Positions 51,581-60,660 of a stretch of 64,000 nucleotides of DNA are shown one piece after another. The stretch is from Bacteroidota bacterium (lineage in GTDB: Bacteria; Bacteroidota; Bacteroidia; Bacteroidales; CAIWKO01). The notes under the pieces were generated by a model that was not told where the DNA came from, ran no database searches, and saw nothing but the letters and a program-made list of their open reading frames with translations. Where the stretch lies: assembly GCA_037133915.1 (NCBI GenBank), contig JBAXND010000017.1:1345-65344 (forward strand), written 5' to 3'. The position numbers were made by a program, and so were the translations under genes. Position 1 is the first letter of the stretch; each line of letters begins with the position of its first letter.

Positions 51581-52009
51581 CTATTCTTTTATAATCTTCC
51601 ACTCTTTTTGGTCGTTTCCGGCTGTAAGTCTTAGGATATACAGGCCTGAGGGCAATGTGCTTATGTCAAAGGTGTTTGCAGTGCTCAGGTTTGTTCTGTT
51701 CATCAGTTCACGGCCGCCCATATCGAAAAGACCGATTTTTCCCGTAATTTCTGCCGGCAAATTCGCGATATTCACATTAAGCCGCTGTTCCACGGGATTC
51801 GGGAAAACGTTTATGGTCATCTCGCCCAATTGCTCCGAAACGGGAGTATTGGCAGCATCGGAAAGGCTGTCGTGCGATTCAAGATTTTTCATGACAACTA
51901 TTTGTCGCTTTACCCGGTTTCCGGCAGCGTCGTAGGTGTATTCGAATGTTTGTGCGCCCAGGCTCATAGCCACAAGCAGCAACATAATAACGATTGATAA
52001 TTTTTTCAT
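51581..52009 (-). CDS. Mini-protein: signal peptide, a single YD repeat and a T9SS C-terminal sorting domain
   Basis: 142 aa. The order is signal peptide MKKLSIVIMLLLVAMSLGAQ, then TFEYTYDAAGNRVKRQ (YD/RHS repeat consensus), then a CTD (INVFPNPVEQRLNVNI...GLYILRLTAGNDQKEWKIIKE). Confidence 0.65.
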   Translation of the reverse strand: MKKLSIVIMLLLVAMSLGAQTFEYTYDAAGNRVKRQIVVMKNLESHDSLSDAANTPVSEQLGEMTINVFPNPVEQRLNVNIANLPAEITGKIGLFDMGGRELMNRTNLSTANTFDISTLPSGLYILRLTAGNDQKEWKIIKE

Positions 52010-52045
52010 GACGATTTATTTGTTTAATGTTCAGGTAAATTATTT

Positions 52046-53023
52046 TTATTCGTAACGACTTATGGTGATCCGCAAACCAATATTAATGGCAACATTCGAA
52101 AATGAGAACGAATAGCTTCGCAACTCCGACGGTTTATCGGGCTCCTGTTGGGGGTTTCCGGCATAATCGGGTTCAACCAGTAATAAGGAAACAAATTCTC
52201 CGTCCTTGTTATAAAATGACGCATTTGCATTATCAGTAAATTCAAACTCTTTCGCACTCGTTGTCATTTGCGGTAAGCGGGTGCCGCCATCTAAATTGTA
52301 TTTTACCATTTTTGCTGATTTGGGTGTGTAATTATCATATGCTGCTGCACATTCAAGAAACACATGAAAGCCGGCTCCCGCATTTAAATCTATACCGCCT
52401 GCTAATGCTAATCCCACCGATAAGCCTCGCCGGTACTGCAATTGCGTATTGATTCTTTGATAGGGACGGTATGAAGAAAGCGATACGGCGCATTGCAAAT
52501 CGGCTGTTTCATCTATAAAGTGGTAGCTTATCTGAGGACCAATACTCAGGTAGGGCGACCATCTTTTTCCGGGATATGAAAACCGCAGTGCAGGCTCAAG
52601 CCATGCTGTCCGGCCGCGCAGTCGGTATGTGGTATTGTAGTGAACAAAATAAGCGGAATTGCCCGCCACGTCCTGCAGGTATCCGCCTTTAACAGTAAGT
52701 TTCTGCCCGCCTGCATAACCGGCTCCCAGCTGAACACTGAGCCAGGGATATTTGGTAAAGGTGTAGACGCCTGTTAATACAGCGTGCAGGCCGCCTCCGC
52801 ATGAAAAACTGGTGTCAGCGTAGGTTGTTTCCCGCGTCACGGCATTCGAATAATACAGCATCTGGCAGGTGCGGGTTTTGAACTCAGAACCTATAATCCC
52901 CCATCCCGGACCCAAAGACACACCCACGCTGAATTGCGCATTTGATGGCAGGTACCACAACATTAAAATCAGAATCAAGCCGTTTTTATACCGACTGCAT
53001 AATTGTCCAATGTGTTTTTTCAT
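52046..53023 (-). CDS. Predicted outer-membrane beta-barrel protein, unknown family
   Basis: 325 aa with a signal peptide ending ...PSNAQ. Gly/aromatic-rich amphipathic strands alternate along the protein (LSVQLGAGYAGG, LSVGLALAGGIDL, FHVFLECAAAY, NVAINIGLRITISRYE). Confidence 0.5.
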   Translation of the reverse strand: MKKHIGQLCSRYKNGLILILMLWYLPSNAQFSVGVSLGPGWGIIGSEFKTRTCQMLYYSNAVTRETTYADTSFSCGGGLHAVLTGVYTFTKYPWLSVQLGAGYAGGQKLTVKGGYLQDVAGNSAYFVHYNTTYRLRGRTAWLEPALRFSYPGKRWSPYLSIGPQISYHFIDETADLQCAVSLSSYRPYQRINTQLQYRRGLSVGLALAGGIDLNAGAGFHVFLECAAAYDNYTPKSAKMVKYNLDGGTRLPQMTTSAKEFEFTDNANASFYNKDGEFVSLLLVEPDYAGNPQQEPDKPSELRSYSFSFSNVAINIGLRITISRYE

Positions 53024-60300: not shown

Positions 60301-60493
60301 CGGCACCTGCGGGCGTTACGTTCGCCTGTCCGGTTGTTGCTCCAACAGGTTTGTTCACATCGATTGCACGATTGGCAATGTTTATAGGACTAATGTAATT
60401 CACTACTTGTGCGCTTGTACATTTAACAGAAAATGTAATAACGGCAATAATAGCCACAATAGCCGCGTGGCGGCGGTTGGAAAGGATGTTCAT
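54380..60493 (-). CDS. RHS/YD-repeat polymorphic toxin with SpvB/TcaC-type N-terminal region and FG-GAP repeats (TcB-TcC fusion-like), carrying an unknown 257-aa C-terminal domain
   Basis: Read N to C, it has an SpvB-like motif ([37 protein letters not shown]) and seven DxDGDG-type loops (for example [14 protein letters not shown]). These are followed by a TcdB-mid-like segment [21 protein letters not shown], a long run of YD repeats, and the RHS core end [13 protein letters not shown]...[17 protein letters not shown]. Start taken as ATG 60493 ([21 protein letters not shown]). Confidence 0.9.
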   Translation of the reverse strand: [2037 protein letters not shown]

Positions 60494-60660
60494 CGTATTT
60501 GATTTTTTTTTGTGAATAATAGAACCAAAGCCGACTCTCACGAATCGGATGACATCACTTTCCTTTTTTAATTGTTTTTGTTAAACAGTTTTTGCGGAGT
60601 GCAAAAAAAACAATATTCCGGTAAGACTGTTTATTTGTTTTTGTTTTGTTAAATTGACTG

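Follow-up and report, generated by a model that had tools for sequence, protein, structure and literature searches.

The window analyzed here, a 64,000-nt stretch of contig JBAXND010000017.1 (assembly GCA_037133915.1) from a bacterium of the Bacteroidales (Bacteroidota; CAIWKO01), carries on its minus strand a gene for a polymorphic toxin of the SpvB/TcB-TcC-like RHS type, at 54380..60493 and 2037 aa long from an ATG at 60493. Four smaller genes follow it on the same strand, with gaps of 11–90 nt. Their products are 217, 182, 325, and 142 aa in length; the last, encoded ~2.4 kb downstream of the toxin gene, is a mini-protein in which a single YD repeat is joined to a type-A C-terminal domain (CTD) of the T9SS (type IX secretion system). 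As far as sequence comparison with related loci can tell, this 142-aa gene is the only co-conserved one among the four. SpvB-RHS toxins are a described and abundant class, of which the locus, as a genomic object, is an ordinary member; its remaining interest lies in the toxin tail, for which there are two candidate immunity proteins, and, more so, in the pairing of SpvB-RHS genes with the mini-protein, which is quantified here.

The toxin reading frame has an alternative start, an in-frame GTG at 60541 upstream of the ATG, which would give a 2053-aa form (54380..60541, minus strand). The gene call on the source contig is the 2037-aa form; domain positions are given here in the 2053-aa numbering unless otherwise stated. 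At the N-terminus is a Sec signal peptide (60406..60493, minus strand), recognized as a hydrophobic segment at residues 9–31 of the 2037-aa form, followed by CTSA and, across the putative cleavage site, Q. Peptide and cleavage site were assigned by hydropathy and direct reading of the sequence, not by a dedicated predictor; signal-peptide-like N-termini are also present in all 12 of the toxin homologues inspected. Next come an SpvB/TcaC N-terminal domain (59810..60313, minus strand; Pfam PF03534, residues 77–244, E 2.1e-13) and an FG-GAP (integrin-like) beta-propeller (58202..59299, minus strand; Pfam FG-GAP and FG-GAP_3, E 1e-17 to 1e-19), where a motif scan finds calcium-type loops as six copies of DxDxDG plus ADLDGDQT, that is, six or seven. 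A TcdB middle/N-like segment (TcdB_toxin_midN, PF12256; 57845..58129, minus strand; residues 805–899, E 2.7e-5) scores 24.0 bits, slightly below the gathering score of 24.8; precomputed annotation places PF12256 in many of the toxin homologues. The RHS repeats (RHS_repeat, PF05593, E 1.5e-25) are followed by an RHS-associated core with autoproteolysis motif (55154..55420, minus strand; NCBIfam Rhs_assc_core TIGR03696, residues 1708–1795, 63.3 bits against a cutoff of 32.5). In alignment, this core motif agrees with the family consensus, and DPSGN at residue 1792 is followed by a 257-aa tail. The catalytic aspartates responsible for autoproteolysis of TcC and Rhs proteins lie in this motif region. 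The first-pass annotation had proposed the same domain order (signal, SpvB, FG-GAP, TcdB-mid, RHS, a core with DPSGN, and a 257-aa tail), and Pfam, NCBIfam, and the motif scan bear it out. It had also reported no PAAR, VgrG, or T6SS gene in the window and no T9SS CTD on the toxin itself; on the toxin, searches of Pfam and NCBIfam find only SpvB, FG-GAP, TcdB_mid, and RHS families, with no PAAR or VgrG domain and no T9SS CTD.

The mini-gene (51581..52009, minus strand) encodes in order a signal peptide, a single YD hairpin (FEYTYDAAGNRVKRQ) whose motif reads FEYTYDAAGNR, a linker, and the T9SS type-A CTD, which matches Por_Secre_tail (PF18962) at E 1.6e-12 and TIGR04183 at 56.5 bits against a cutoff of 23. 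Its homologues have a common layout: a signal peptide, 1 to ~10 residues, a single YD repeat with an invariant YDxxGNR, a linker of variable sequence, and a type-A CTD. Those from distant lineages are 23–40% identical, with the signal peptide, YDxxGNR, and CTD all intact.

Linkage between the two genes was examined in both directions. A genome scan keyed on the SpvB N-terminus alone (a 4-sequence alignment, run against GTDB representatives, which do not include the window's own genome) returned 34 loci, 23 of them from Bacteroidota and the rest from Gammaproteobacteria. A mini-protein homologue adjoins the SpvB-RHS gene, on the same strand, in 13 of the 23 Bacteroidota loci. Five of the 23 (L003, L006, L018, L023, and L029) are interrupted by contig ends; in one (L012) the only type-A CTD protein is a larger one of 643 aa, encoded further upstream; and four (L017, L019, L022, and L025) have a different type-A CTD protein, of 307 aa, encoded immediately upstream, 4 to ~65 nt before the start of the RHS frame. 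The 307-aa ORFs (L017:8975–9898, L025:8975–9898, L019:8907–9827, and L022:8908–9828) are without the YD motif and accompany one SpvB-RHS clade; their product looks like an alternative T9SS-tagged partner. Further upstream, L017 also encodes a 1499-aa PKD/CHU_C protein with a type-B CTD, and L025 has the same ORF layout, the domains having been read in L017 only. When the toxin tail and the 217-, 182-, 325-, and 142-aa proteins of the window were searched against all ORFs of the RHS-keyed loci, only the 142-aa protein had homologues there.

In the reverse direction, a scan from an alignment of the mini-protein gave 68 metagenome loci, 43 of which have a full-length mini-gene and informative flanks. 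RHS sequences stand beside the mini-gene in 40 of these 43. The commonest arrangement, in 34, has the SpvB-RHS gene immediately downstream of the mini-gene, with gaps mostly below ~300 nt and some overlaps; four are like the window, with the RHS 3' end 0.5–1.1 kb upstream of the mini-gene; and two mini-genes abut RHS fragments. Because the search pattern was contained within the small ORF itself in 42 of the 43 cases, the RHS linkage is not an ascertainment artefact. The same linkage is found for two database homologues of the mini-protein on long contigs (L037 and L038), and over all it spans Bacteroidales, Chitinophagaceae, Lentimicrobiaceae, and many metagenomes. By both the genome and the metagenome counts, the YD/T9SS-CTD mini-protein pointed out in the first-pass annotation is a real, co-conserved accessory. 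As a separate observation, L037 and L038 also encode tail-fibre-like/repeat proteins (L037:9059–9979, with Peptidase_S74, and L038:8690–10681) in an operon-like string with the mini-gene and the SpvB-RHS gene.

The fold of the toxin's N-terminal half was modelled with AlphaFold2 (AF2), for residues 46–1200 and from a 56-sequence alignment, giving a predicted local distance difference test score (pLDDT) of 81.6 and a predicted template-modelling score (pTM) of 0.83. The propeller region is all-beta in this model. The best PDB matches by Foldseek are TcdB1, TcdB2, and YenB (E 6e-38 to 5e-32), and template-modelling (TM) scores against TcB subunits, normalized to the query (TMq) and calculated over the first 1155 residues, are 0.53–0.63. 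The SpvB N-domain structure 6p0x is matched as well; for Rhs proteins of the T6SS (type VI secretion system) and for teneurins TMq is only 0.10–0.18. In PDB sequence searches, toxin residues 66–245 match YenB at E 6.6e-9, and the repeat region is matched by T6SS Rhs cores. A TcB-like reading of the modelled N-terminal half is well supported, and the earlier suggestion that TcB- and TcC-like parts are fused into one cocoon bearing a Sec-type signal finds support in both the domains and the Foldseek scores.

The top structural matches being TcB subunits of holotoxins, and the propeller that docks TcA in Tc toxins being present, the protein could in principle serve as BC subunit in a canonical Tc (ABC) toxin whose TcA injector is encoded elsewhere in the genome. 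A few Bacteroidota, e.g., Amoebophilus, do have proteins similar to TcA, TcB, and TcC (PMC8831229). No TcA-sized gene is present in the 64-kb window, as the first-pass annotation had also observed, and no TcA gene was found beside the ~100 related loci examined; the window toxin carries a Sec signal peptide, and its immunity-like downstream genes and the polymorphic tails of the family fit interbacterial polymorphic toxins. We know of no Sec signal peptide in a canonical TcB, and consider a Tc subunit very unlikely. A T6SS (subtype iii) Rhs effector is scarcely credible: in its favor, PDB sequence searches match the RHS region to Rhs cores of T6SS effectors, and Bacteroidota do possess T6SSiii, but the N-terminus is a Sec signal peptide and then SpvB, with no PAAR or VgrG domain; the fold is far closer to TcB (TMq ~0.6) than to T6SS Rhs proteins (~0.15); and no T6SS genes were found in the window or in the related loci. 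All ORFs of at least 500 aa in the 64-kb window could be assigned, leaving none of TcA or VgrG size unassigned, although small PAAR-like ORFs were not exhaustively scanned.

Relatives of the toxin are numerous. In a search of 5.8 billion proteins, with 8000 candidates scored, the toxin has at least 1447 matches at E ≤ 1e-10; its description as an orphan does not hold. All 120 of the homologues listed are 1800–2900 aa long and have SpvB and FG-GAP; RHS repeats are present in all but two, and TcdB_mid in many. The named sources are overwhelmingly Bacteroidota, among them Dyadobacter, Spirosoma, Chitinophagaceae, Bacteroidales, Flavobacteriales, and Azobacteroides. The toxin Pfams at the C-termini of the homologues are diverse (PF15528, PF15535, PF14412, PF11429, PF00959, and others). 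The best matches among those listed are 46–47% identical over just 84–87% of the query, so that their tails must differ. Among polymorphic toxin systems, Zhang et al. (2012; PMC3482391) distinguish a “TcdB/TcaC” trafficking class. On the order of the Pfam and NCBIfam domains, the AF2 fold matches, the 1447 or more homologues with varying toxin Pfams, the Rhs-type organization of relative loci, and this class definition, the locus is very probably a Bacteroidota member of that class.

Three of the homologues (P0016, P0051, and P0078) have long N-terminal extensions (Ig_7 “CHU_C-associated,” PKD, and Ig_2) before SpvB, with domains of the kinds that Bacteroidota surface proteins typically have. 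The Ig_7-bearing homologues were checked for a T9SS CTD in cis; none is present in them, and Ig_7 is an N-terminal extension.

The 257-aa polymorphic C-terminal tail, which begins after DPSGN (54383..55153, minus strand) and is presumed to be the toxin, matches nothing in Pfam or NCBIfam even at E 10. Both a word-indexed search of 5.8 billion proteins and a phmmer search of 1.84 billion representatives returned the query itself as the only relative, which is consistent with the first-pass annotation, where the tail could not be assigned to any toxin family. Tail type varies elsewhere in the family as well: the homologues at 46–47% identity differ in their tails, and other members have diverse toxin Pfams. 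The tail may be a lineage-specific toxin, and together with two candidate immunity proteins it makes a possible new toxin/immunity family. The first of these is the 217-aa membrane-anchored protein (53674..54327, minus strand), encoded 52 nt downstream of the toxin by a sequence with a G+C content (GC) of 0.31; it has one N-terminal transmembrane segment, at 5–27, belongs to no Pfam or NCBIfam family, and is without a counterpart in related RHS loci, one other metagenome containing a variant of at least 90% identity. The second is the 182-aa protein (53035..53583, minus strand), with transmembrane segments at 14–40 and 43–68 and a gene GC of 0.364, against 0.43 for the window. It too has no Pfam or NCBIfam family and no counterpart beside other RHS genes; the nearest related strain keeps the gene, at 87% nucleotide identity. 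Two AT-rich membrane proteins had been predicted downstream of the toxin, and base composition and transmembrane segments concur. Because they are AT-rich, membrane-anchored, without family, and without counterpart at other RHS genes, the 217- and 182-aa products, which are lineage-specific, probably form the immunity part of a variable toxin/immunity cassette, rather than serving as export accessories. Their membrane anchoring suggests that in a bacterial target the toxin would act at the envelope or membrane.

A tail that has no recognizable toxin fold or family could also belong to a teneurin-like surface adhesin without killing function, and some of the homologues do have N-terminal Ig or PKD domains of the adhesion type. 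We regard this as highly improbable. The Rhs core autoproteolysis motif is intact, homologues have known toxin domains at the same position, the fold similarity to teneurins is low, and the small AT-rich membrane proteins downstream, together with orphan cassettes in relatives (described below), are hallmarks of toxin/immunity systems. The adhesin, Tc, and T6SS readings are all disfavored on such grounds: a signal peptide is present, TcA, PAAR, and VgrG genes were not found in the window, the fold search points to TcB, and the locus has toxin/immunity hallmarks.

Between the 182-aa gene and the mini-gene is the gene for the 325-aa protein (52046..53023, minus strand), which by inspection is exported and which varies between strains. 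Its N-terminus resembles a signal peptide by eye but falls below the hydropathy threshold. Pfam, NCBIfam, and PDB sequence searches give no match even at E 10, and no relative was found in 40 or more related loci or in the metagenome scan; its earlier label as an outer-membrane beta-barrel could not be verified. The gene is absent from the nearest related strain (JGI contigs L042 and L043, 87–91% nucleotide identity), where the order is 182-aa gene, ~113-nt spacer (L042:371–483), mini-gene, fur, and purA. Comparison of the window with L042 puts the indel boundaries around the gene at ~53034 and ~52032. Since the gene is missing from the nearest strain, it falls outside the conserved block; on this comparison it is a strain-specific indel, apparently an unrelated insertion that is no part of the conserved module.

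This bears on the arrangement originally proposed, a self-contained five-gene system conserved as a unit, with the 325-aa protein as barrel exporter and the two membrane proteins as export or immunity accessories. The five genes do lie on one strand with short gaps, and an identical five-gene block was found, although only in three independent assemblies of the same organism. The indel largely refutes the proposal. The barrel fold of the 325-aa protein could not be shown, and the 217-, 182-, and 325-aa proteins are without homologues beside related RHS genes and without family assignment. Conservation of the five genes as a unit can be set aside, and we give the self-contained system very little credence.

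The reading that we prefer, and hold as a whole to be somewhat better than an even bet, is that of a Sec-exported RHS cocoon toxin, with its tail in a toxin/immunity cassette, that is coupled to the T9SS via the mini-protein. The 2037-aa protein, to judge from its signal peptide, would be exported by Sec to the periplasm. It would fold into a TcB-plus-TcC-like cocoon with the FG-GAP propeller as closure, as the domains and the fold of the first 1155 residues suggest. Cleavage at the Rhs core near DPSGN, where the motif is intact, would by analogy with TcC and Rhs biochemistry free the 257-aa tail inside the cocoon. The tail would act as a lineage-specific toxin, from which one of the AT-rich membrane proteins, or both, might shield the producer. 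With no TcA or T6SS found in the window or in related loci, the cocoon may be functionally coupled to the T9SS through the co-conserved 142-aa mini-protein: the genetic linkage is observed, and the physical mechanism proposed for it is that the single YD hairpin would dock on the RHS beta-sheet shell, with the type-A CTD engaging the T9SS. As an outcome, the cocoon could be carried across the outer membrane piggyback, or it could be tethered at the surface after CTD processing.

Coupling of the RHS toxin to the T9SS through the mini-protein, taken by itself, appears to us a matter of roughly even chances. The link to the T9SS is drawn because of the type-A CTD on the mini-protein, the two-way genetic linkage, the type-A CTD proteins of the window, and the precedent of Apibacter (discussed below). 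At least four type-A CTD proteins are encoded in the window, from which it follows that the organism uses the T9SS. Besides the mini-protein these are at 2..511 (plus strand), 33127..38874 (minus strand), and 42063..43076 (minus strand), one of the three being a 1915-aa GEVED, MAM, Ig_7 protein. A more specific version, in which the mini-protein is a trans-acting T9SS adaptor whose YD hairpin, N-terminal once the signal peptide is cut off, completes or clamps the edge of the RHS sheet and whose CTD recruits the whole cage to the translocon, is advanced tentatively, as possible rather than probable.

Several points weigh against the coupling reading. The RHS protein itself lacks a CTD. Three of the 43 informative mini-protein loci (L085, L094, and L097) have no RHS gene nearby, and in the window three other genes stand between the toxin gene and the mini-gene downstream, which is a minority arrangement. 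T9SS cargo genes are common in Bacteroidota, and some chance adjacency is to be expected; it is not expected for this specific family. The single-sequence AF2 model of the tail, with a pLDDT of 34, is uninformative. Both the binding of the mini-protein to the RHS protein and the passage of a folded ~2000-aa cocoon through the T9SS are inferred, and the searchable literature yielded no experimental demonstration of T9SS-dependent RHS secretion. Finally, the two closest homologues show that a mini-gene may have other roles, as set out next.

The loci of these two homologues (L001 and L002) have the classic Rhs organization: downstream of the main gene lie small proteins, either membrane proteins or with a signal peptide, as well as orphan RHS C-terminal cassettes, and every cassette has a small gene downstream of it. 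Short ORFs with a signal peptide and YD motif are scattered among them, three of 39 aa in L001 (17403–17522, 19645–19764, and 23902–24021) and one of 37 aa in L002 (14986–15099); these carry YEFTTDAA(G/R)N and correspond by homology to the beginning of the 142-aa gene in the window. Such truncated mini-ORFs precede the first two orphan cassettes of L001 and the orphan cassette of L002, and the third L001 copy is at a contig end. The mini-gene may thus act, through its 5' end, additionally or alternatively as a recombination arm, or that end may travel with or bound the exchangeable toxin/immunity cassettes. In the window itself, tblastn found neither orphan RHS fragments nor extra mini-gene copies. 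The orphan RHS fragments L001:21860–23041 and L002:15089–16084 share an in-frame insert of ~35 aa (VLRNTDCGSAAH.N.NVEQIPIMYNFYYSDGDYIGK), which interrupts the conserved core motif after (H/R)GYTMH and may be a small mobile insertion.

These loci speak for the main alternative, in which Sec exports the RHS cocoon and its release or display then takes place without the T9SS, for instance through outer-membrane vesicles, lysis, or some other route, much as might be said of Gram-positive WapA or the bacterial teneurin-like proteins, the mini-gene being an assembly or plug factor or a conserved 3' homology arm for cassette swapping. Truncated mini-ORFs ahead of orphan cassettes are what would be expected if the 5' end of the mini-gene travels in recombination, and in the window-like loci the RHS core and the mini-gene bracket the variable cassette. 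Proteobacterial relatives of the same architecture, which lack a T9SS, are presumably functional without a conserved neighbor; the genes around them are unrelated housekeeping genes, with no conserved delivery partner. Sec-exported surface toxins with a YD shell do exist (PMC13018210). A recombination arm leaves unexplained, however, why signal peptide, YDxxGNR, and type-A CTD stay intact in mini-proteins across distant lineages, and why the mini-gene is predominantly found in a tight upstream operon position. We rate this alternative as rather unlikely, though deserving of serious weight, and retain T9SS coupling via the mini-protein as the preferred reading.

The surroundings of the locus are core chromosome: the window includes a ribosomal protein cluster and genes for SecY, EF-G, UvrD, CcmF, GcvP, RelA/SpoT, Fur, and PurA. 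The organism is uncultured, its sequence coming from a metagenome assembly (ENA ERZ4223250). Between relA/spoT and the RHS gene, the intergenic DNA contains a 14-nt tandem repeat (TGAAAAATGAAGAA) in 4.6 copies at 60839..60902. In the same region (about 61000..61090) there is also a CACAGAG-rich tandem repeat with an 11-nt unit at 61039..61066, with what by eye appears to be dyad symmetry.

SpvB-RHS toxins are abundant in Bacteroidota of gut, soil, and water, where they come without TcA, T6SS adaptors, or a T9SS tag. The phylum-wide pairing with the mini-protein provides a testable hypothesis for how such TcB/TcC-like RHS toxins are exported. If it is true, the role of the T9SS would extend to interbacterial antagonism. 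If the adaptor version is also true, the T9SS would supply the delivery route that has long been missing for “TcdB/TcaC” polymorphic toxins of Bacteroidota, and the toxin would to our knowledge be the first adaptor-mediated T9SS substrate.

Among known systems, the BC cocoon of Tc toxins (TcdB2-TccC3 and YenB-YenC) is the best structural match, at TMq 0.53–0.63 for the first 1155 residues. It shares the order SpvB, propeller, TcdB-mid, RHS, and Rhs core, and presumably also an autoproteolysed payload inside the cocoon. The window toxin differs in that B and C form a single chain headed by a Sec signal peptide, and in having no TcA injector in the window or related loci; its immunity-like genes and the polymorphic tails suggest that it is used between bacteria and not against insects. 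T6SS Rhs effectors (RhsA, Tse5, Tse15, and RhsP) have in common with it the RHS shell, the Rhs core, a polymorphic toxin, downstream immunity, and orphan cassettes, whereas the window toxin has a signal peptide, no PAAR, VgrG, or clade/prePAAR domain, and an N-terminal half with a TMq of only ~0.15 to them. Bacillus WapA and the teneurin-like proteins of bacteria (Raoelijaona et al., 2026; PMC13018210) are likewise Sec-dependent surface YD/RHS cages with polymorphic C-terminal toxins, the BiTLP toxin being a domain that damages membranes from their periplasmic face. The N-terminal modules of the teneurin-like proteins are FN-plug, NHL, and TTR, in place of the SpvB and FG-GAP of the window toxin, and Bacteroidota are not among the phyla named in the retrieved passages of that study; the fold match is also poor (TMq 0.10 for 9ifo, and 0.10–0.16 for teneurins and teneurin-like proteins).

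The TANFOR polymorphic toxins of Bacteroidetes (Jana, Salomon, and Bosis, 2020; PMC7073777) resemble the present case in having a signal peptide, no CTD of their own, and neighborhoods rich in T9SS cargo, and T9SS export was put forward as a hypothesis there too. Their N-terminal domain and repeat scaffold are unrelated, and no specific small adaptor-like partner was defined. In “Candidatus Ornithobacterium hominis,” an rhs gene of >9 kb with SpvB and TcdB signatures is accompanied by smaller ORFs that were read as displaced tips (PMC6421346). The “TcdB/TcaC” class itself (Zhang et al., 2012; PMC3482391) has a signal peptide, SpvB, an integrin-like propeller, RHS, a variable C-terminal toxin, and downstream immunity genes, all of them like the window locus, and Bacteroidetes are explicitly named for it. 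The differences are that the window's tail is outside every catalogued toxin family, with no detectable relative, and that the retrieved passages of that paper make no mention of a small YD/T9SS-CTD partner gene.

The closest precedent is that of Apibacter, whose Rhs proteins have SpvB/TcdB N-termini and most of whose rhs genes adjoin genes with T9SS type-A sorting domains; an association with the T9SS was inferred (Steele and Moran, 2021; PMC8125069). The window locus is like these in its N-terminal domains, in the adjacency of a type-A CTD gene, and in the deduction of T9SS rather than T6SS involvement. With the class defined by Zhang et al. (2012) and adjacency to T9SS genes reported by Steele and Moran (2021), the arrangement is not, as had been supposed, an undescribed one. 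The Apibacter observation was a brief genomic remark on a single genus; here a specific partner family is defined and its linkage quantified. The present analysis thus does not originate that remark, but generalizes and sharpens it.

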